From Escherichia phage EC106: a stretch of DNA of 64,000 bases. Positions 2,639 to 57,938 of this stretch are shown here, piece after piece. The notes beneath the pieces were generated by a model. The model was not told the origin of the DNA, did no database searches, and saw only the letters and a list, made by a program, of their open reading frames with translations. Position 1 is the first letter of the stretch. Each line of letters opens with the position of its first letter. The stretch is taken from the sequence record ON210138.1; one strand, 5' to 3'. The position numbers and the translations under genes are program-made.

Positions 2639-3451
2639 TTACTCTTGACTGTAATAGTTGACAAGTGAAATTGCTTGATTCATCAACAGCTTATCAGCCT
2701 GTGCTCCGCGACCAGCTTGTAATGCTAGTTGGTATACCTCTGTAACATATTTGTTAGACATACCTTCACAGTAATCGTTATAATCCTCCCAAAAGGAGAA
2801 TGCAGCATCACCATATAGGCGTAATGTGATTAGCATTGCTGCACGGATACCAGAAGAGTACTTGCGTTTTGCGTTTACTACACCTTTAAGCTGTACTTCA
2901 AGAGAATCAATTTGTTCCAACTCATTCTTAAAATCATTAAGGTATTTAACTGTTTCAGTGTTAGATACCTGTTGCACACCATAGTATGCAGCAACATACT
3001 TAATGGCAGTAGCCCAAGATGCTTTCATCAATTCTGATTCTGGATTGAAAGAAATCATCTTCATATTCCCGTAATAAACCTCTGAAGGTTTCTCTCTTGC
3101 TAATTCAGAGTCAAAATGAGTATACAAATCTGTGACATCCAATATAGAGTTCACATGGTATATAACTGCAATCAGGTTATCTGGTCGTGTCAGGTTACCA
3201 ACCTTCCATGCCTCTCGACGTGAGTGTCCATCAATAATAAACAGTGAACTGCCAAACTTAGCTACATGGACTACTGTTTGGTCTGGTGACACATCACCAT
3301 TAAGGTGCTTACTCTTCAGACGTTTCAGTGTATTTCTCTGACGAGGATTTTCTTTGTAGCGTTTCTCGTTAAGGAAATCCTCAACACTGATAATCTTAGT
3401 GTGCATTTTAACAACTTTACCGTTCAGTGCTACATTGATGCTATTTGACAT
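2639..3451 (-). CDS. ParB/Srx-like domain protein (paralog of 6418-7257)
   Basis: IDGHSRREAW motif resembling the DGHxR core of ParB-like nuclease/CTPase folds; clear similarity to 6418-7257. Confidence 0.45.
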   Translation of the reverse strand: MSNSINVALNGKVVKMHTKIISVEDFLNEKRYKENPRQRNTLKRLKSKHLNGDVSPDQTVVHVAKFGSSLFIIDGHSRREAWKVGNLTRPDNLIAVIYHVNSILDVTDLYTHFDSELAREKPSEVYYGNMKMISFNPESELMKASWATAIKYVAAYYGVQQVSNTETVKYLNDFKNELEQIDSLEVQLKGVVNAKRKYSSGIRAAMLITLRLYGDAAFSFWEDYNDYCEGMSNKYVTEVYQLALQAGRGAQADKLLMNQAISLVNYYSQE

Positions 3452-3462
3452 AACTTTATACC

Positions 3463-4347
3463 TTAGTTGTGGATAATTACTTCGTTAATACCTTTGCTTC
3501 TCTGTGCATGTATTGTGTATGAATGATTAACCTCTGTCAAGTGAAAATTTTCAGGAATTAGGTTTATCCATCCGTCCCACTGAGAGTTTGACATTAACAC
3601 CTTAGAGCCTAACTCCCCCCAATCAGACATATCTTTGCACAATTTCACAGACATTGAAACGTCGAACTTTGCGCCATATTTCTGGTTGGTGTTTATATAT
3701 GGTGGGTCACAGTAAATGACCGTCCCTTCTCCATGCTTTATGTCAACCATATCATAAGAGTGACTGCTGAGGACAACCCTCTCATCAGTGATGAAGTTAT
3801 AGAACTCCTTTAGTGCTTCTTCAGTCTTTGTAAAGAAAACTTCTTCTTCCATCAAATAGCCGCAAGGGGTTGCATAGTGCCCTTTCATCTCTTTAGTTGT
3901 CTGCCATACACCACCAAAACTTAGTTTCTGAAGGAAAAACTGTCTGGCATAGTATCTGTAGTCATAGACACCAGATTCACCAAGCGTGAGAAGCTCGTCT
4001 CTTACACTGTAGTACATCTTATAACGTAATCGGTTATGGCGTTGCCCCTTCATAGTGTACTCTTCCTGCATAGGTAATGCTAAGTACCTTTTTGCCAAGT
4101 ACCGAAACCCTTCCATGAATTTGTCATAATCATCCCTGAAGGTTATGTAAAGCTCTATGATATGCTTGTTTATCTCATTAATAAATATTTTTGCTTCTGG
4201 GTACTTATTGTAAGCCCAGATAGCTACTGAGCCACCACCTGAAAACAGGTCATAGAAGTTTTTACAGTTGTCTGGAAAGACACCTAAACGCTCATATTCT
4301 TTCAGTATTCTTGTTTTACCGCCAAGATACTTAAACATTGGTTTCAT
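3463..4347 (-). CDS. dam: Dam-family N6-adenine DNA methyltransferase
   Basis: KYLGGK N-terminus, FSGGGSV (motif I) and CDPPY (motif IV). Confidence 0.85.
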   Translation of the reverse strand: MKPMFKYLGGKTRILKEYERLGVFPDNCKNFYDLFSGGGSVAIWAYNKYPEAKIFINEINKHIIELYITFRDDYDKFMEGFRYLAKRYLALPMQEEYTMKGQRHNRLRYKMYYSVRDELLTLGESGVYDYRYYARQFFLQKLSFGGVWQTTKEMKGHYATPCGYLMEEEVFFTKTEEALKEFYNFITDERVVLSSHSYDMVDIKHGEGTVIYCDPPYINTNQKYGAKFDVSMSVKLCKDMSDWGELGSKVLMSNSQWDGWINLIPENFHLTEVNHSYTIHAQRSKGINEVIIHN

Positions 4348-4364: not shown

Positions 4365-4385
4365 AAAAAGGCTCCCGAAGGAGCC
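4365..4385 (-). terminator. rho-independent terminator, same hairpin sequence as 2612-2632
   Basis: GGCUCC-UUCG-GGAGCC + U5 on minus strand. Confidence 0.75.
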
Positions 4386-4397
4386 TGTATCTTAACC

Positions 4398-4862
4398 TTA
4401 ACCGAGGACTTTAGCAAGGAAATTTGCAGCCATCGAAGAAGCTTTTGCAGCAGCAGCTACCCCAGCTTTGGCAGTGCTATCCTTGATAGCAGATACCGTT
4501 GCAGCATCAGTAAAGAGATAAGTAGTTGTTTTAGAACCACTTGTAAAGGAAAGCATGAGAGCAGTTTCCAGATTGAAAGAGCGATACGGAGCACCTTCTT
4601 TAACGATACCTACAGCACCTAATTCTGAAGCCATCCCCATATCATAGATGGTCATCAGGTTTTCTTTGTGTGCAGTCGTTGAACCAGCACCTTTGACGTG
4701 TTTCTTAACATTCAAAAGGGCACGATACTCCCGAATGTTACCGTCTGCTTTTACATTGACAGCACGGAAGATTTTACCCTCAAAGTTGCTCTTGATAATG
4801 TTACGAACTACTTCAGATTTGTTTGCCGTAACGTCAAGTGCTACCGTAATGATATTGTTCAT
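4398..4862 (-). CDS. hypothetical protein
   Basis: ORF with Ala/Ser/Thr-rich C-terminus; no recognisable motif. Confidence 0.4.
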   Translation of the reverse strand: MNNIITVALDVTANKSEVVRNIIKSNFEGKIFRAVNVKADGNIREYRALLNVKKHVKGAGSTTAHKENLMTIYDMGMASELGAVGIVKEGAPYRSFNLETALMLSFTSGSKTTTYLFTDAATVSAIKDSTAKAGVAAAAKASSMAANFLAKVLG

Positions 4863-4872
4863 AAGTTTTCTC

Positions 4873-6093
4873 TCAATGTTTAACTAACATGGTTTTAATG
4901 TGTGGAAGGATTCTGTTCACCTTCTGCACATTCTTCTCTGTGTCTTCTATAAAACATACTATATTAAAGTAAGGCAGGATGCAAGACTGAATCATCCTCA
5001 CTTTCAAACTTTCTGCACTTATAGAGTTAGTCCCAAAACCACGCATAAAAAGCATGTAGTCATGCTCTGTGTTATGCCTTAAAAACATCTCAGTAGGTAT
5101 TCTCTGAGATTCACCTCTCGCTGTCAAGAGGCCAATGGCAGCATGATTAGCAATTGCATCAATGATATTGAAAACATACGTTGGTTTTGCTCTTACAGAG
5201 TCAAGAAGATTGGTATACTGTGAAAATGAACCGTCTGTCAATTCCGTTGAGCAATCTTCGTGATTAAAATTTGTAAGAACACCATCAATATCTGCTAAGA
5301 TGAGATTCCCTTTTTCTACAAGGTCTTTATTGACTATGACTAAGCTATCACGACTCACACCTATAGTTTGTCCAGTCTCTTTATCAACAATGTTCACAAT
5401 TGGTTCTGATGTGTGGAACTCTTCAAGTGAACATATAACTTCTCTTGCAGTGTCTTCAAAATCCCTGCACTGTTCTGGAGTCCATACACAGGAATCAAGA
5501 CCTAACTCATGAGGATGTAAGTCATAAGCATGACACAGGACTTCATCAGACTTTTTAATTTTTTCATGGTTTACCTTAGAAATGTTTGTTGCAAATTCAC
5601 ATTGAGCAATAACTTTCATGTTGTTATAGACATCTTGAGAATACTTCTTAGCTTTAGGGATTCTGTACGAATACCCAGCATTATATGATGCTAAAACTTT
5701 TTGTAAAGTCTTCTTTGACTTTGGCTGACCATGCACCTTTGTCCAAAACTCAAGCTCTTTGTGAGTTTCCTTCGCAGCATAATCAAAGTCTCTTAAGAGT
5801 TTCTTTTTAGCCACATTAGGGCTAATTTTGTTACGCTTTACAACAGTCTTCAAGTGATTCTGGAAAATACCATAATCGTGTGTCTTTTTATTCTCTACCT
5901 TCAGACCTAACTCTGACTCTTGTAAGGCTATAGCAGCTAGAGTGATACCCCAACCTTTACCCATGTTATTCTCACCATACTGGTAAGCTTTTAACATGTT
6001 TACTTTTTGGCTAATTGATAGCTCTGGGCAGTCAACTGCATAAGATAAGTGTGCTGTAAACATTAAGCACAAACCTAGAATCAATTTCTTCAT
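4873..6093 (-). CDS. secreted lytic transglycosylase (SLT) domain protein with C-terminal HAD-like phosphatase-type domain
   Basis: signal peptide; SLT motifs QESE, GIFQ, SYNAGYS; C-terminal DIDGVLT (HAD motif I) and IEDTEKN. Confidence 0.55.
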   Translation of the reverse strand: MKKLILGLCLMFTAHLSYAVDCPELSISQKVNMLKAYQYGENNMGKGWGITLAAIALQESELGLKVENKKTHDYGIFQNHLKTVVKRNKISPNVAKKKLLRDFDYAAKETHKELEFWTKVHGQPKSKKTLQKVLASYNAGYSYRIPKAKKYSQDVYNNMKVIAQCEFATNISKVNHEKIKKSDEVLCHAYDLHPHELGLDSCVWTPEQCRDFEDTAREVICSLEEFHTSEPIVNIVDKETGQTIGVSRDSLVIVNKDLVEKGNLILADIDGVLTNFNHEDCSTELTDGSFSQYTNLLDSVRAKPTYVFNIIDAIANHAAIGLLTARGESQRIPTEMFLRHNTEHDYMLFMRGFGTNSISAESLKVRMIQSCILPYFNIVCFIEDTEKNVQKVNRILPHIKTMLVKH

Positions 6094-6154
6094 TGGTTCT
6101 CCTGTTTAGTTTATCGTGACAACAATTATACAGTACTCTGCACAAAATACAAAT

Positions 6155-6180
6155 AAAAAAGGCCGCCGAAGCAGCCTTTT
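6155..6180 (-). terminator. rho-independent terminator, possibly bidirectional
   Basis: GGCUGC-UUCG-GCGGCC hairpin flanked by A-run and T-run. Confidence 0.6.
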
Positions 6181-6182
6181 AG

Positions 6183-6443
6183 TTACATTACGTAGAGGTT
6201 CCCAAAACCTGTAGGTTTCCCATTACGAAAGTTACGACGCTTAACAGGTAACTTAGTGATAGTTTTCGTCTTCTCTAAGTCTATAAAGGTCTGTGTAAAA
6301 TCCGACGGGAGATATTTTTTACCAAACTTTGCAGAGAGGTACTCTGCTACTTCGTATTGTGTAGCTGCCCCCAGATACTTGAGAGCAACCCTGACCATCA
6401 TCTTTTTAACTTGCATATCAGTCCTTATAAGCTCTAAATGCAA
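6183..6443 (-). CDS. hypothetical protein
   Basis: ORF in operon context only. Confidence 0.35.
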   Translation of the reverse strand: MHLELIRTDMQVKKMMVRVALKYLGAATQYEVAEYLSAKFGKKYLPSDFTQTFIDLEKTKTITKLPVKRRNFRNGKPTGFGNLYVM

Positions 6444-7257
6444 CGTCAGCTTGTGACATTACATAACCTTGAAACACACCACCATTCTGGTCATACTGGG
6501 TCTTCATGGCATCTAAGAAGCTGCTTACAGACTCATCATCATCACGGTAGTCCAACCAGAACTTTGTAGCCTTTTCAGGGTTTTCTTTGAAGCTCTTAAG
6601 CATTGCTGCCATAATTGGAGCAGAGTACTTTTTACGCAGTTCACACTTCTGCTTAACACCGTTTACAGTCTTCTCTTTGTACTTATCCATCTCATCCTTA
6701 TTAATGCCAAGTGCATCAATAAGTTTAAGCTCTTCTTGATAGAGTACAAATGCTTCATCAAGGCATCCACGGAGACCTAATAAGGCCCACACACCAGCAC
6801 CAGTAAATTTCTTGGTGAACGCTGTCTGTGGCTTATAACCAGAGCGTAGTATTGCAGTTGTAACTTGGTCACCATTTGTGGCTCGTGAGTCCAGTGAGTT
6901 TTCTTGGTCGTAGAGGAAATCTACTTCTTCCTGTGAATTAACGGCAAACAGTGTCACATAGACAAGTCCGTTCTTGGGAGCACCTAACTTACCATTCTTC
7001 CAGTTCTCTACGCGCGCATGAGAATCAATGTTGATAACTTCTCCATTGAATAGTACACCCGTAACACGGGAACGTAAATCCACCTCACGAAGTTCTTCAT
7101 TAAGGTAGGGTTTAGCAATTCGTCGTTCAATGCTACGGTTTGCTGAGTAAGGCTTTGCACAGTTAGCCCAATCCATGTACCCCATGAAGAAGGAAGCTAC
7201 ACCACAAACGAAATCAATCTTGCAAGGTGTTTTGCTCTGGAACTCTTTGAATTTCAT
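6418..7257 (-). CDS. ParB/Srx-like domain protein (paralog of 2639-3451)
   Basis: IDSHARVENW motif and shared KYSxxxxAAML...FW C-terminal block with 2639-3451. Confidence 0.45.
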   Translation of the reverse strand: MKFKEFQSKTPCKIDFVCGVASFFMGYMDWANCAKPYSANRSIERRIAKPYLNEELREVDLRSRVTGVLFNGEVINIDSHARVENWKNGKLGAPKNGLVYVTLFAVNSQEEVDFLYDQENSLDSRATNGDQVTTAILRSGYKPQTAFTKKFTGAGVWALLGLRGCLDEAFVLYQEELKLIDALGINKDEMDKYKEKTVNGVKQKCELRKKYSAPIMAAMLKSFKENPEKATKFWLDYRDDDESVSSFLDAMKTQYDQNGGVFQGYVMSQADVAFRAYKD

Positions 7258-7262
7258 AGTTG

Positions 7263-7281
7263 CTCTCTCTCTCTCTCTCTC
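7263..7281. repeat. (CT)9 dinucleotide microsatellite
   Basis: ctctctctctctctctctc in intergenic spacer between methyltransferase and ParB-like genes. Confidence 0.9.
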
Positions 7282-7324
7282 ATCTACTAGGTTTGTTTAC
7301 AGGTATACTATATAAATTCTTTTA

Positions 7325-8224
7325 TTAATGCAAGTGTTTTTCTAAAGTATTTATAATTTCTTGTGAGTTGATAGAGCCTGCATAACTCAGTGCAAAACCA
7401 TCTCTCAAATCATTAAACCATTCTTGTTTGATTGCTGAGTAAAGTCCTTCTATGTGTGGTTCGATAAACTGTTTCACTGACACCTTGTCTTTATCTGGTT
7501 CAAAAGCCTTCACAGTACCAGCCTTGCGACCATGCGTGATAATCGTGAACAAGTCTTTGCCATCTAGTTTACCTAAAACACCAACTGGCTGCTCTTTACC
7601 ATCAATCTTGTGACATGGTGGTCTGTATAGTGTGAATTTCTCACGCTTATAGACTCTTACACCATCAACTATCACAGGGGCAATCTTACAAATTTTATCT
7701 GCCCGTTTTTGTCTCTTCCAGATTTGGAAGTTACAGCGTAGTGATGACTCTTTTGCTGAGTAGGCAACTCCATCAATCCTTTCAAAATGAAGGTTAGGTA
7801 GCTCTACTTCATCAATGCAGGTGTACTCTCTGCTAAGTCTGCTAAGATTCTTCTTCCCAAAGTTAATAGGAACTAGGAAGCAAATGTAGTCTGGATTCAT
7901 TGTAGCAGCCTTGTTAAAGAACTTTGTAGACAGACTGTTTGCCTTACCAAATGGAGGGTTGGTAACAATCGCAAAAGGCTTATCTGGAATTTCTAAGTCA
8001 TCTTTCAGGAAGTCTCTTGTGCTAACATCTTCAGAGTCTGGTTCGATGTCGTATAGCACAACATCTTGACAAACCCTCTTAAAAGAGTCTTTCCATCTTC
8101 CGTCACCTGCACAGGGGTCTATAATGCACGAAATAGAGCCTTTAAAGACCTTTTGTAGCTTCTCTTCACACACTCTTATTACTTCGTCTGGTGTGTAGTA
8201 TTTATCAAGTTCTGCTTTAGCCAT
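7325..8224 (-). CDS. gamma-class DNA methyltransferase (N6-adenine or N4-cytosine)
   Basis: YYTP, IDPCAGDG (motif I) and NPPF (motif IV) in gamma-class order. Confidence 0.7.
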   Translation of the reverse strand: MAKAELDKYYTPDEVIRVCEEKLQKVFKGSISCIIDPCAGDGRWKDSFKRVCQDVVLYDIEPDSEDVSTRDFLKDDLEIPDKPFAIVTNPPFGKANSLSTKFFNKAATMNPDYICFLVPINFGKKNLSRLSREYTCIDEVELPNLHFERIDGVAYSAKESSLRCNFQIWKRQKRADKICKIAPVIVDGVRVYKREKFTLYRPPCHKIDGKEQPVGVLGKLDGKDLFTIITHGRKAGTVKAFEPDKDKVSVKQFIEPHIEGLYSAIKQEWFNDLRDGFALSYAGSINSQEIINTLEKHLH

Positions 8225-17353: not shown

Positions 17354-18220
17354 TTACATAGAAACCCTATCCTTAATTTCTGCCATCTTAGCGTCATTCA
17401 TTCGAGACTGACCTTTAATTTTTGTGAATGACAAGTACCCGCACACCCTGTTAATCACAGAGATATCGTGTGAATGGCAAACCTCACACTCTTCAACATC
17501 AGCCTTTGGTCTGTTACCACAATGTTCACAGATTGCTAAGTCAAAGTTAAGTCCCTGATAAAAACCTTTCAACATGCCTCTTGTAATGCAACTTTTAAGT
17601 GCTGGTAAGTTTTCTGGGTTAGCTACCCTTACATACTGGATTCTGCCACCTCTACAGATATGGAAGAATGGCTCTTCTAAGTCCTGCTTCTCAAATGGTG
17701 AGATGTCTGCTGCAACATTCATATGGAAACTGTTTGTAAAGTATTCCTTGTCAGAAACACCTTTGATAACACCAAACATTTCTCTGAACTGTTTTAGCTG
17801 AGTTCCACAAAGTGATTCTGCTGGAGTACCATAGACGGCATATAAGAAGCCATCTTCATTTTTAAACTCTTCAGTTTTCATGTTGATGTATGCCAGAACA
17901 TTGTATGCAAAACTACAGCTTCCAACTTCATGAAGTCGTTTACCTTCAGCAAGAACAGATAGCTCATCAAGCGCAGTAACACCAAAAGAAGCTGTGAAGG
18001 ACTTCACAATATCCCAACCAACCTTGTCAGTAGGCTTCTTAGTTCCTTTGTACAGACCACCTTGTGTAAACGCAAGAGGGTTAGAACTTGCTGGCATATT
18101 AGCAATCATTTCGTAACGTTTCTTGTGGAAGCTGCGAATCATCTCTAGGTACTTATCAAGTTCTTTCCAGAAATCTAAACCATTCTCTTTAGAATACTGG
18201 TAAATCATTGGTAAGTTCAA
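17354..18220 (-). CDS. nrdD: anaerobic ribonucleotide reductase, C-terminal exon
   Basis: glycyl-radical motif RVCGYLS and zinc ribbon CEHCG...CEVCH; frame stays open upstream of the annotated start to about 18322. Confidence 0.8.
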   Translation of the reverse strand: MNLPMIYQYSKENGLDFWKELDKYLEMIRSFHKKRYEMIANMPASSNPLAFTQGGLYKGTKKPTDKVGWDIVKSFTASFGVTALDELSVLAEGKRLHEVGSCSFAYNVLAYINMKTEEFKNEDGFLYAVYGTPAESLCGTQLKQFREMFGVIKGVSDKEYFTNSFHMNVAADISPFEKQDLEEPFFHICRGGRIQYVRVANPENLPALKSCITRGMLKGFYQGLNFDLAICEHCGNRPKADVEECEVCHSHDISVINRVCGYLSFTKIKGQSRMNDAKMAEIKDRVSM

Positions 18221-19041
18221 AGATACAGCACCAATGTTTGCACGACCTACATAAAACTCTTCACCATATTCGTTATAGTATGGTGATAAAAATGCTCTAC
18301 ACTTGTTGTTCAGGTAAGTTCGCTAAGCTTACCCCGCTTTATTCAAGCTGCTTACTGTCGCCAGTAAGTCCAGACTATATCTTCTACTTATTTCTAAGTA
18401 GCGTACCATTTCGAGTCGCTTGACCCTACACCGCTACATTCATCACGGTTAGTCGTTCGGCATTTAGATGTACTCAAACTTATATTCGAAGTTATTATGC
18501 TCTTTTACACCCTTCAATATTGAAGAGATGGTCTTGCGATTGTGTCCAAGTGTATTGGATAACTCTCGTATTGACTTAGCAACAATAACTTCCTTTGTCA
18601 CTTTGTGTGTGGCTTTCACGGCATATGAACGCTTGTGGAACTTGTAGCACCCGTTCTCAATAACCCTCTTTAGCATTCTCAGAATGAGTACCCCATTCTA
18701 AGTTAGATACGTGGTTATTTAGTTTGTTATCGTCCTTATGTTTTACAATTGGAAGATTGTTCGGGTTAGGTACATATTTCTCAGCAACTAACCTGTGGAC
18801 ATACATGTCACGATTCTTCTTACCGTAAAACCTCACTTTCATATACCCAGTGTTGGATTTCCACTGCGTAAGCTCTACACCATTTTCCCTAAAAACTTTT
18901 CCATCTTCAGTGACGTGATAGTTTGGCATGTAAGACTCCTATGTTGTATAGTTTCTTACATCGTACATCATTTAGCACAGGATTGTCTACATCTGTAGAG
19001 TTTCCCTGTTTAGGCACGTTTTAGATGAGCTATAGAGCTTG
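18221..19041 (-). mobile_element. putative group I intron interrupting nrdD, carrying an HNH homing-endonuclease gene (boundaries approximate)
   Basis: nrdD split into two co-linear ORFs; intervening HNH ORF plus structured non-coding flanks. Confidence 0.6.
18464..18929 (-). CDS. HNH homing endonuclease, apparently frameshifted (two overlapping ORFs)
   Basis: HKDDNKLNNHVSNLEWGTHSENAK HNH motif in 18657-18929; C-terminal segment in 18464-18676. Confidence 0.6.
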
Positions 19042-20241
19042 TTAACCCATCGGTGAAATTACCTTGCCAGAACGCTCAAAAGCTTCTGCTACAGCACCAT
19101 GACCAGATACACTTAAGAAATCTGGATACATTGCTTTAGAGCAACACTCTATAGCTTTACTGTACAGGTGGCCTTGACAGATATTCTCATTATGTCTCTT
19201 CTGGTCATAAATATAAACCAGTTTAGGGAATACAACAGGTTTCTTGCTCTTACCTTGTCCATTCATACGAACATCTAGGAGAGTACTTGCAATCATGTAT
19301 TGTAGTCGGTTATCTTCATTGGACATATCTGAGTCAAGTAACCCGAATGTCAAAGTTGTGAATGCAAAATCACCACGGCTGCAAGGTACAGTATTTAGTT
19401 TCATCTCTAGTGACTGGAAGCCTTGAGTTAATTCAATCTGTAGCTGCTCCATGACATAATTGTGGTAATGTTCTTTAGGAATACCATAAGATGCTGCTTT
19501 CTCAGCATGATAGCGTAGAGACTTCTTAGCATACGGTACAAGTACCTTATCAATCTCTGCTAAAGTAAAGCCACCAAATTGCTGTGCAGTTGCTGAAAGA
19601 ACTACGTCACCAATAACCTGTAAGGCTGACAGTACAGACTTTGGTTCACAATATTCAATGCCAGACATTTCAAAGCCACCTTTCAGCACTTTACCAATGT
19701 CAAACAGGCAACAGTTGATACCACCAAAAATTAGGTCTCTTAAATCATGGATATAGATAAACCCTTTTTCAATGGCTTCAAGTTCCTCTGGTGTTAAGTG
19801 GTACTGTTTAAAGATTTCTTTAGTCAGATAACCACGAATAATTGAGCCTTTTGTAGAAATTAAACTGCTGTCAAAATTAGCGTTTTCTCGGTCGCCTAAG
19901 AATAGTGTATCTTTGGTCTTCTGGTAGAGTTCATCCCAATTTTGAGCAACTTCTTTACGGTAATTTCTATATGTTGAGTAAGACTCATAAATCTCGTGAT
20001 TGACTTCTGCCAAAGCACCCTCAACAATACTGTGAATATCATTTACCGAAATTAGCAAATTATTCTGCTTAGTGGACTTTACCAGAATCCTCATAAATGC
20101 TGACTCAAGAGCTTGAGTAACATCTGGTGGAAGCTCTTTATAACCAACTCTGTTAGCTGACTTTGTGACTGCTGCTAAAACTTTTTTGATATCAGGTTCT
20201 TCAAGTGAGCCATTCTTTTTAATAATCTGTACTTTGTTCAT
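19042..20241 (-). CDS. nrdD: anaerobic ribonucleotide reductase, N-terminal exon
   Basis: 399-aa ORF co-linear with the C-terminal exon; ORF probably reads into intron before its stop. Confidence 0.75.
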   Translation of the reverse strand: MNKVQIIKKNGSLEEPDIKKVLAAVTKSANRVGYKELPPDVTQALESAFMRILVKSTKQNNLLISVNDIHSIVEGALAEVNHEIYESYSTYRNYRKEVAQNWDELYQKTKDTLFLGDRENANFDSSLISTKGSIIRGYLTKEIFKQYHLTPEELEAIEKGFIYIHDLRDLIFGGINCCLFDIGKVLKGGFEMSGIEYCEPKSVLSALQVIGDVVLSATAQQFGGFTLAEIDKVLVPYAKKSLRYHAEKAASYGIPKEHYHNYVMEQLQIELTQGFQSLEMKLNTVPCSRGDFAFTTLTFGLLDSDMSNEDNRLQYMIASTLLDVRMNGQGKSKKPVVFPKLVYIYDQKRHNENICQGHLYSKAIECCSKAMYPDFLSVSGHGAVAEAFERSGKVISPMG

Positions 20242-47375: not shown

Positions 47376-55409
<8,034 letters not shown>

Positions 55410-55410
<1 letters not shown>

Positions 55411-55649
55411 TACATTTTTCCTGCTCTTCTAAGTTCGTTGTAAGCAATTTCCTCTTTATACGACCTCTGAATCTCAAGAAATTGTCTCAATGATAATAAA
55501 TCAGAGAATGTCATAGCAAAGAGTTGGTCAAGTGTTTCTTTACACCCTTCCATACCATAAATAGCAAGCACAAATTTCATCTCGTCTGCTTCTTCATAGG
55601 TTGCCTCTACAGCAGCATCAGTTAGTGGTGTCTGTAGAGTGTTACCCAT
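55410..55649 (-). CDS. tail assembly chaperone, -1 frame extension (putative frameshift product C-terminus)
   Basis: in -1 frame relative to 55652-56050; -1 frame open from slippery site at 55688-55694 into this ORF. Confidence 0.5.
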
Positions 55650-55651
55650 GT

Positions 55652-56050
55652 TTACTGAGAAGTTAGGCTTTTGAAAATGCTTGCTTCGAAAAAACTTCCG
55701 AAGTTTGCCTCCAGCGCAAACGCTAAGTAATCAATGAACTCACCATAGTTTGCTTGGAAGTACGTATCAATATTAAGCGGGAAGTCATCAACAGTTGCCC
55801 CTTGAAATAATAAGGTAGCCATCTCTTCAAGGTTAATTTCTTCAATTCTGTCAAAACAAGCTTCAACAAGTTCTTTAAATGGAACCATTGGAGCTTCTTT
55901 CTTACCCTTGTCAGTCAGACTTGATAGCATCTGTGCAAAAGTTGGAACAACAATTTTACCCAACTTCATAGACATCTTAATACCATCTCTTGCCCCAAGC
56001 AGAATGATATTCACCTTCTTACCATTAATTACTCTAGATTCTGTTTTCAT
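55652..56050 (-). CDS. tail assembly chaperone
   Basis: between tube and tape measure; slippery heptamer U UUU UUC about 40 nt before stop. Confidence 0.55.
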   Translation of the reverse strand: MKTESRVINGKKVNIILLGARDGIKMSMKLGKIVVPTFAQMLSSLTDKGKKEAPMVPFKELVEACFDRIEEINLEEMATLLFQGATVDDFPLNIDTYFQANYGEFIDYLAFALEANFGSFFEASIFKSLTSQ

Positions 56051-56080
56051 TGTGATTCCTTAATACTTTTAAAAGAAACA

Positions 56081-56110
56081 AAAAAGGGGAAGACCTTTTA
56101 AAGTCTCCCC
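56081..56110 (-). terminator. rho-independent terminator after sheath-tube genes
   Basis: GGGGAGAC...GUCUUCCCC hairpin with U-run on minus strand. Confidence 0.65.
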
Positions 56111-56123
56111 CTTATAGGATTTA

Positions 56124-56570
56124 TTAAACACTTGACGCTGGAATCGTAGAAGTGTAGTCTAGCTTCTCACAACCAAAAATCCAAGTTTTAGAGTTCTGGT
56201 CACGACCAAGTTCAATCTGTGGTAGTTCCTGCAACCAAGCATTAATACCAGTTGCCAGAACAGAGCCTGATGGGTCGTAGATTACGAAGTTAGAAGAGAT
56301 ATCTTCTTCAAGTTCCATATTGTCTTGTTTAGCTTGAATTGCAGAAAGCATCTGGTTAGAGAGAGAAGTCTGCATTAACTCAATCTCAATAGTACCTGTC
56401 TTGTCTGCATTTCTTGTCAGAGCAACTTGACCACCCGCACCTACAACTGGTGTCACAAGTGGTGATGTTCTCTGTAGACGTAAGAATGAGTCTGGGGCAA
56501 AGCCTTCAATGGCAATACCATTCCAGCTACACACAACGTCTTTAGGGGAATATTGCTGATACATAGCCAT
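56124..56570 (-). CDS. tail tube protein
   Basis: 148 aa directly downstream of sheath candidate. Confidence 0.55.
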   Translation of the reverse strand: MAMYQQYSPKDVVCSWNGIAIEGFAPDSFLRLQRTSPLVTPVVGAGGQVALTRNADKTGTIEIELMQTSLSNQMLSAIQAKQDNMELEEDISSNFVIYDPSGSVLATGINAWLQELPQIELGRDQNSKTWIFGCEKLDYTSTIPASSV

Positions 56571-56585
56571 TCCAATTTACCTCTA

Positions 56586-57938
56586 TTATTCGTAAGCCAC
56601 TGTACCTTTCAAGTCAACATCCAAGATAGCCCCTGCTAAGATACCTGAGAAGGTAACGTCTTTCAGGATACGCGCTTTCTTGTCTGCTAAAGCAACTTGA
56701 GAGGCTTTAGGAACATTAACTGTGTAAGATGACAGGAAGTTTCTGTTGACTGCTCTTTGCAGAGAGGTTTCAATGACTTGACGAATACGGGTAATACCAG
56801 TATCATCATAAGTAATCTTACCACCCTTCTGGTTAATTAGCAAGTCTCTCAGAGAAGTTTTCAGGTCTGATTCTAACCAGTCAACACCACGGATGATATC
56901 AATCCATTCCCCACCAGAAGTAATCCCTCTACGAACCACTGGAACACCACCATCGAGGTCAATAAAGTTACAGTGACGTGCATCTAAAGCTGACTTCTGA
57001 ATACTTGTCAGAGGTCTCTTATTAGTTGGCTGTAGAGAAGCAGCTACACCAGTTAGCTGAGCATTACCCCAAGCAATCGAGCCTGCATCATATGGAGCAC
57101 CATAAGCAATGTATGCCATTTCTGGATAGTCTTCTGCTGCCGTGTGATGCCACAAGCAAACTGTGCGAGTATACATACCCTTAGCAAGCTGTGCTGGAAC
57201 ATCATTTGCACTGGCTAATTCTGTGCCTTGTAGGGCTGTTACATTAGAGTTAGCTGTAAAGAAAATCTTCTTACGGGCTTGAATCTCAGAAGCCATTGCT
57301 AAGACAAACTGTTGAGTTCTATCTTCTGCTGCAATGAAATACCAGTCAGTAGAATAGGCTTCAATAGCTGCCAGAGCAGTTGATGCTGTATCGGCAGTTG
57401 TACTTGCAATATATACAGTCTTTGCTGTGGTTGTTACTTTCACAAAGTCATTATCACCAGCTTTGGTAATAATCATTGTGGCAGAGCCATTGCTACCAGT
57501 CACATTCACAGAAACCTTATCTTTGATTGTTGGGTCAGCTTCAATCTGTGTTTTAAACTGTTGCAAAACTTTCTCAGCAGTGTCTGATTTCAGTGCTGTG
57601 TACTGGTATGGTTGAGAAATTCCACCACCAACAGCAACAGTAATTGAGTAGTCTGTACTTTCGGTAACGGCATCAGGAATTGATACAGTGTACTGCATAG
57701 CACGTCTACCAATATAAAGCTGAGTTACTTTAGGAGTCTGACTCCAAAGTTGTTTAGCAGCCTTATATGCAGCAGACCTCTCATCGAAATCTTCAGCAAC
57801 TTCAGTTAAGGAAGTGTAGCCACGGACTCTTTCTTCAAAGTTGTCTGTTGAAGCTAAGAATAGTGGCAAGCCAAAACCTTCTCTTGTAGTTCCTGCGGTG
57901 TTCAATGTAATATCTACATTAACAATTGGATTCCACAT
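56586..57938 (-). CDS. tail sheath protein
   Basis: 450 aa; position between head-tail joining genes and tube. Confidence 0.55.
   Translation of the reverse strand: MWNPIVNVDITLNTAGTTREGFGLPLFLASTDNFEERVRGYTSLTEVAEDFDERSAAYKAAKQLWSQTPKVTQLYIGRRAMQYTVSIPDAVTESTDYSITVAVGGGISQPYQYTALKSDTAEKVLQQFKTQIEADPTIKDKVSVNVTGSNGSATMIITKAGDNDFVKVTTTAKTVYIASTTADTASTALAAIEAYSTDWYFIAAEDRTQQFVLAMASEIQARKKIFFTANSNVTALQGTELASANDVPAQLAKGMYTRTVCLWHHTAAEDYPEMAYIAYGAPYDAGSIAWGNAQLTGVAASLQPTNKRPLTSIQKSALDARHCNFIDLDGGVPVVRRGITSGGEWIDIIRGVDWLESDLKTSLRDLLINQKGGKITYDDTGITRIRQVIETSLQRAVNRNFLSSYTVNVPKASQVALADKKARILKDVTFSGILAGAILDVDLKGTVAYE

Follow-up and report, generated by a model that had tools for sequence, protein, structure and literature searches.

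The closest described relatives of the locus treated here are two adjacent genes of the Felix O1-like phages, already known from Felix O1 as ORF3 and ORF4 and present in hundreds of genomes. The first encodes gp3 (Felix01p003, NP_944779.1), listed in UniRef as 'Lysin' (Q6KGV0). The second encodes gp4 (Felix01p006, NP_944782.1), annotated as 'polynucleotide kinase'. Further afield, gp3 resembles T4 Vs.1, for which a marginal SLT match has already been noted (PMC1524935). The more distant counterparts of gp4 are T4 Pnkp (PseT) and bacterial Pnkp1, of the Pnkp1-Rnl-Hen1 RNA-repair complex.

Escherichia phage EC106 is an 87,829-bp Felixounavirus (Ounavirinae, Felix O1-like), sequenced on Illumina MiSeq at 73x (ON210138.1; PMC9583813). 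The window analysed here is a stretch of 64,000 nucleotides from that record, and all positions refer to it. On the minus strand, positions 4873 to 6093 form one uninterrupted ATG-to-stop open reading frame of 406 codons, giving a protein of 406 aa. The region shares 94–97% identity with its counterparts in over 250 Felix O1-like phages. A first-pass annotation, made from the letters alone, described this frame as a secreted lytic transglycosylase fused to a HAD-like phosphatase-type domain. The sequence elements it quoted are all there: a signal-peptide-like N-terminus at aa 1-19, the SLT motifs QESE (58-61), GIFQ (75-78) and SYNAGYS (136-142), and, towards the C-terminus, DIDGVLT (268-274) and IEDTEKN (382-388). 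Judging from the alignments these are not chance matches, as the key residues are conserved across the homologues of both parts. PHROGs cuts the 406-aa protein cleanly into two families, with aa 1-170 falling in phrog_600 and aa 178-406 in phrog_3970. The features of the locus are collected in Table 1.

Table 1. Features of the EC106 locus, in window coordinates.
Feature	Position	Strand	Basis
Fused open reading frame, EC106 protein URO83478.1	4873..6093	-	ORF list and protein records
Shine-Dalgarno AGGAG, 5 bases 5' of the first ATG	6099..6103	-	read from sequence
Vs.1-type GH23/SLT-like gene (gene 1), Felix O1 gp3 homologue, ancestral TGA 5546-5548	5546..6093	-	profiles, homologues, AF2 model
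Putative Sec-type signal peptide, aa 1-19 (MKK, hydrophobic core, SYA/VD cut)	6037..6093	-	read from sequence
AAGG ribosome-binding site, 6 nt 5' of the ancestral phosphatase ATG, kept in EC106	5574..5577	-	sequence; annotated RBS in phage Moogle
One-base deletion site: plus-strand T5 = gene-strand A5 (TTAAAAAGTC)	5552..5556	.	alignment to relatives
Dead-end reading frame from the ancestral phosphatase start, 21 codons, MKKLKSLMKSCVMLMTYILMS*	5502..5567	-	frame reading
PNKP-type HAD phosphatase gene (gene 2), Felix O1 gp4 homologue, ancestral ATG 5565-5567	4873..5567	-	profiles, motifs, AF2 model
N-terminal beta-rich module of gene 2, about 85 aa, without Walker A, not a kinase domain	5311..5553	-	AF2 model and motif search
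HAD phosphatase domain: I DIDGV, II T-A-R-G, III K, IV E-D	4876..5310	-	homologue alignment, structure
Terminator-like hairpin upstream of the unit	6157..6180	-	hairpin search
Terminator-like hairpin after the 154-aa gene (4398-4862)	4369..4386	-	hairpin search

The single frame very probably has a simple origin: two adjacent, normally separate Felixounavirus genes have been joined in EC106 by the loss of one A from an A6 run in their overlap. In Felix O1, ESCO56, LinBro and Tf the same span measures 1222 nt, against 1221 nt in EC106, and the annotation divides it into a 549-nt and a 696-nt gene (182 and 231 codons) with 23 nt in common. When EC106 is aligned to these four, the only difference in length in 1.2 kb is a one-base gap at an A-run, within that 23-nt overlap. 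Where the relatives read CATGAAAAAATTAA[A/G]AAAGTCTGATGAAG, EC106 reads CATGAAAAAATTAA-AAAGTCTGATGAAG. Across 23 loci that were read base by base, the run is A6 in 9 and AAGAAA in 14.

The consequences can be followed codon by codon. In the relatives, gene 1 ends in ...HEKIKKV followed by TGA, and the ATG of gene 2 lies inside that end, 6 nt 3' of an AAGG. This stop comes 7 codons past the junction in all 23 loci. In EC106 the ancestral TGA is out of frame, and frame 1 continues into the body of gene 2 with the junction peptide ...NHEKIKKSDEVL...; the ancestral ATG of gene 2 now opens a dead end. The fused frame thus exists because one A is missing from the run. Compared with Felix O1 gp3, which aa 1-180 match, the EC106 gene lacks its stop codon and runs into the next gene. 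Compared with gp4, whose counterpart is aa 181-406, the start and the first six codons are out of frame, so that the product is possible only as a C-terminal extension of gp3. These 226 residues are 93–95% identical to the 231-aa proteins of the relatives. If one A is put back, the first gene yields a 182-aa product identical to Felix01p003, which is recorded on 121 contigs.

The first-pass annotation regarded an SLT-HAD fusion in a single gene as an unusual architecture. This does not survive comparison with the relatives: all those examined, from three genera, keep the two genes apart, and each gene has a ribosome-binding site and start codon of its own. The comparison took in roughly 110 of some 255 phage records one by one, the 23 loci followed at base level, and two further genera of Ounavirinae; the remaining related records are covered by ranking logic alone, in that a one-piece match would come top. 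The 231-codon frame opens at the internal ATG in 20 of the 23 loci, two others being cut by the end of the locus and one being shortened to 193 codons. The shortened phosphatase gene, near position 6432 of a metagenomic contig (IMGVR_UViG_3300045988_003503), may be a sign of tolerated disruption, or an assembly error.

A 61-aa peptide spanning the EC106 junction gives the same picture over a wider set. In the 60 best of 259 records it matches as two pieces, in two frames and in two annotated genes. It is likewise split in 59 of 60 rows sampled evenly from those 259 records, the sixtieth being a chance match in a Lactobacillus phage. No one-piece match to this peptide was seen in either set of 60. 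Full-length matches are also spread over two frames, in 10 rows that reach down to 40–41% identity (Kolesnikvirus), with Mooglevirus at 67%. Phage Moogle keeps genes of 549 and 696 nt with the 23-nt overlap, while in Kolesnikvirus SE5 the genes (513 and 651 nt) abut without overlapping. The adjacency of the two genes is kept across Ounavirinae.

Searches of larger collections agree. The two-gene junction string is found in 19 IMG/VR contigs, against zero occurrences of the EC106 junction string in IMG/VR, JGI metagenomes and GTDB genomes. In a collection of 15 billion proteins, the exact 406-aa protein is present only in the EC106 record and in one Logan assembly (SRR21280023). Protein and contig searches returned no fused homologue; all homologues stand alone, at 151-193 aa or at 229-233 aa. 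Independent, diverged homologues with the same domain order in one frame, as a natural fusion would have, were not found.

There is a side effect of the fused protein on databases. As it chains the 182-aa Vs.1-like and the 231-aa phosphatase families, both end up in one 90%-identity cluster of 1051 members, of which the representative is a 231-aa sequence. A protein search with the full frame returned 231-aa proteins only, the N-terminal homologues being hidden because the fused EC106 protein had merged both families into one cluster. The impression that the N-terminal part has no relatives was dispelled by searching it separately, which gave 21 homologues.

Whether the missing base is a mutation or an error has to be weighed separately. 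On the assemblies, the deletion is probably genuine and specific to this isolate, present in the sequenced phage stock, and a good deal likelier than a read or assembly error. It is reproduced in an independent k-mer assembly of the public EC106 reads, where the Logan contig built from SRR21280023 shows 100% identity to the window across 7,221 nt that take in the junction. The contrary reading, that EC106 truly has A6 and two genes and that the deposited sequence is one base short in a homopolymer, is unlikely though by no means negligible. A one-base change in homopolymer length is a classic type of error, and restoring the base recreates a protein already seen on 121 contigs. The second lone frameshift in the window, in an HNH endonuclease gene near 18660, is also at an A/AA difference. 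Against this stand the Illumina MiSeq data at 73x, in which consensus errors are rare in 6-base runs, and the identical result of the independent assembly of the public run. The assembly is also not error-ridden: when the 64 kb are aligned to Tf and phiWec172, the one in the HNH gene is the only other frame-breaking indel, which speaks against pervasive homopolymer errors as a general explanation, and the other 1-nt differences from these relatives are intergenic or compensated. An apparent further case, at window position 3352, turned out to be a frameshift belonging to Tf. A mixture of A5 and A6 (heteroplasmy), or a systematic error, may lie behind the A5 call. Genuine or not, the deletion does not make the fusion an evolved domain architecture.

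Two other readings take the fusion as functional. The first-pass annotation proposed an endolysin with an accessory phosphatase domain or an enzyme acting in the periplasm; that this is an evolved, secreted bifunctional enzyme is very improbable. The frame is open, the signal peptide, the catalytic Glu and the HAD motifs are intact, and the adjacency conserved in Ounavirinae puts a fusion one step away. Yet a single phage has the fused product on record, no fused homologue came out of the protein and contig searches, and the annotated endolysin of the relatives is a separate gene elsewhere. The junction moreover keeps intact relics of a stop codon, a ribosome-binding site and a start codon. 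With its 7 cysteines the phosphatase part looks like a typical cytoplasmic protein (the mature exported part has 2 conserved ones), and its nearest structural relatives work on nucleic-acid ends in the cytoplasm. The overlap could instead be a site of programmed frameshifting or transcriptional slippage in all Felix O1-like phages, which EC106 has hard-wired. The two A-runs in the overlap (GAAAAAATTAAAAAAG) are of the slippery kind that can support slippage, but the second is broken by a G (AAGAAA) in 14 of the 23 loci, and SE5 has no overlap at all. A +1 shift would be needed, the zero frame lacks a canonical heptamer, and the downstream gene has its own conserved ribosome-binding site and ATG. 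Such recoding is scarcely credible.

Taken by itself, gene 1 is predicted from motifs, profiles and models to be a Sec-exported, periplasmic Vs.1-type lytic-transglycosylase-like enzyme acting on peptidoglycan. The SLT call for the N-terminal part has held up: aa 1-180 form a signal-peptide-bearing, T4 Vs.1-type GH23/SLT-like protein by motifs, PHROG 600 and AF2 fold. The signal peptide region is conserved in homologues (basic and hydrophobic, ending SYA|VD) and is unstructured in the AF2 model. A lipoprotein signal was considered and rejected, Cys9 being preceded by Leu and too near the N-terminus. Over 18 homologues E59, S60, Q78, Y137, N138, G140 and Y151 are invariant or nearly so; within the SLT/GH23 motifs (E-S, G-x-x-Q, A/S-Y-N-x-G), E59, Q78, Y137, N138 and G140 are invariant and S60 nearly. 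The mature part has two conserved cysteines.

The match to phrog_600 (function unknown in PHROGs) has an E-value of 9.4e-57 and places aa 1-170 on profile positions 1-176 of 178. Together with tblastn matches to vs.1 of phages 133 and PEi20, this full-length profile match puts the protein in the T4 Vs.1 family. T4-like vs.1 genes are 31–37% identical to the N-terminal part, and a signal peptide and a marginal SLT match are common to both. The Pfam SLT family (PF01464) scores 16.8 bits, below its gathering threshold of 21.3 (E = 0.005); five distant homologues carry a precomputed PF01464 match. The AF2 model of this part has a pLDDT of 85.8, and GH23 enzymes make up 34 of its top 35 PDB matches, with g-type lysozyme, Slt/Cj0843, MltE and EtgA the best. 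These structural matches mostly have a probability above 0.8, with E from 5e-3 to 1 and TM around 0.5, so the fold is consistent but the match is weak. With Slt70/Cj0843/MltE and goose-type lysozyme the protein shares the all-helical lysozyme-like fold, and it keeps E-S, G-x-F-Q, S-Y-N-A-G and the downstream Tyr. It differs from them in being small and single-domain, in its sub-threshold Pfam SLT match, and in structural E-values of 5e-3 or higher. Gene 1 is presumably not the main endolysin, since the relative Tf has a separate endolysin gene; the one annotated there adjoins tail genes. In several records of T4-like phages the Vs.1 homologue goes under 'RegB endoribonuclease' or 'site-specific RNA endonuclease', apparently a label carried over from the adjacent regB gene.

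For gene 2, the HAD call was also right, and it can be narrowed. The AF2 model (pLDDT 89.7) has a Rossmann-like HAD fold, and each of its 17 best PDB matches is to T4 Pnkp or Pnkp1. The best is 5uj0_A, the T4 Pnkp 3'-phosphatase domain, with a target-normalised TM of 0.81 and an rmsd of 2.2 A. In the numbering of the 231-aa protein, D92-I-D94-G-V96, T148-A-R150-G, K188 and E207-D208 are invariant in nine sequences. The match to phrog_3970 ('polynucleotide kinase') covers aa 178-406 at 8e-133. The Pfam family HAD_PNKP (PF25109) scores 14.6 bits on the EC106 protein, short of its gathering threshold of 27.6 (E 0.036), and matches 5 of 9 family members with E no higher than 1 (5.1e-8 for the best). 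A sequence search of PDB chains with the whole frame gave nothing useful; a profile of the C-terminal part gave a weak Pnkp1 match (4xrp) with the S/T-x-R motif aligned.

No kinase domain accompanies the phosphatase. The Walker A pattern [AG]xxxxGK[ST] is absent from the gene 2 protein, and the structural matches, of about 160 columns, are confined to the phosphatase half of T4 Pnkp. The protein has 231 aa, against 300-residue T4 Pnkp chains in the PDB. T4 Pnkp and Pnkp1 have the same HAD fold and motifs (Foldseek E 5e-7 to 1e-6), at 14–18% identity, and gene 2 has its beta module in place of their P-loop kinase. Gene 2 is therefore best described as a putative cytoplasmic Pnkp-type 3'-phosphatase and not a kinase, with 3'-phosphates of nucleic-acid ends or nucleotides as putative substrates. 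Its homologues in more than 100 Felix O1-like records are labelled 'polynucleotide kinase' or 'PseT 5'-kinase/3'-phosphatase'. The label 'polynucleotide kinase' is unsupported, because the protein is phosphatase-only and has no P-loop kinase domain. A role in RNA repair is not established either, as the Tf record has no RNA ligase annotation outside positions 50,001-57,636.

The first-pass annotation placed the locus within an early/DNA-metabolism block, far from the virion genes. The distance from the virion genes is confirmed, yet the Vs.1-like gene lies two genes from an Rz-like spanin and adjoins the rIIB/rIIA region. In Felix O1, rIIB comes directly before gene 1 and the spanin follows closely. 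From the sequence, gene 1, gene 2 and the 154-aa gene look like a small transcription unit bracketed by the two hairpins of Table 1. In EC106, unlike in Felix O1, accessory genes flank this unit on both sides (2639-4347 and 6183-8224). They are two DNA-methyltransferase-like genes, at 3463-4347 (Dam-type) and 7325-8224, and two distant phrog_2615 paralogues, at 2639-3451 and 6418-7257.

Some further length differences were seen along the way. In Shigella phage Tf a one-base insertion (T5 vs T4) at 5589-6402 splits the 270-aa phrog_2615 gene, which is intact in the window (2639-3451) and in 12 other records. A (CT)n tract at about 7263-7283, in the intergenic stretch 7257-7325, is 10 nt longer than in Tf. 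An HNH homing-endonuclease gene on the minus strand (18464-18929) lies between the nrdD halves 17354-18220 and 19042-20241. In EC106 one inserted base (AA in place of A) breaks it into two frames, 90 and 70 aa long. Tf and phiWec172 have one HNH gene of about 154 aa in a span that is shorter by one base, and so do most of 93 other records. An Rfam scan found no group I intron near the split gene.

What the lost base would mean for the phage can be sketched as follows. In the relatives, translation of the phosphatase would begin at the ATG behind its own AAGG, both within the last part of gene 1. The deletion in EC106 would carry the ribosomes of gene 1, its stop lost, into the body of gene 2. 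With the ATG of gene 2 a dead end, the phosphatase could then arise in one form alone, as the tail of a secreted protein. Such a tail, with its seven cysteines and cut off from cytoplasmic substrates, would lose its function, and for these reasons the phosphatase is most likely inactive in EC106. T4 pseT is dispensable on ordinary hosts, and the phage would tolerate the loss if, as is likely, genes of this kind are generally dispensable there. The transglycosylase part might withstand an extension of 226 residues, or might not. The fusion protein may really be made, the frame being open and reproduced from reads. It is at most a faint prospect that EC106 holds a gene fusion in progress, a stable chimera with both halves active, in which the Vs.1-type transglycosylase carries the Pnkp-type phosphatase into the periplasm. 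If true, this would give EC106 a new periplasmic phosphatase activity.

The domains were correctly called, and what EC106 carries is probably a frameshift allele, confined to this isolate, of two neighbour genes that are conserved and already known. As such it has little biological weight, and its value is cautionary. A one-base indel in the overlap of coupled genes can mimic an exotic domain architecture, and one comparison with relatives is enough to expose it.
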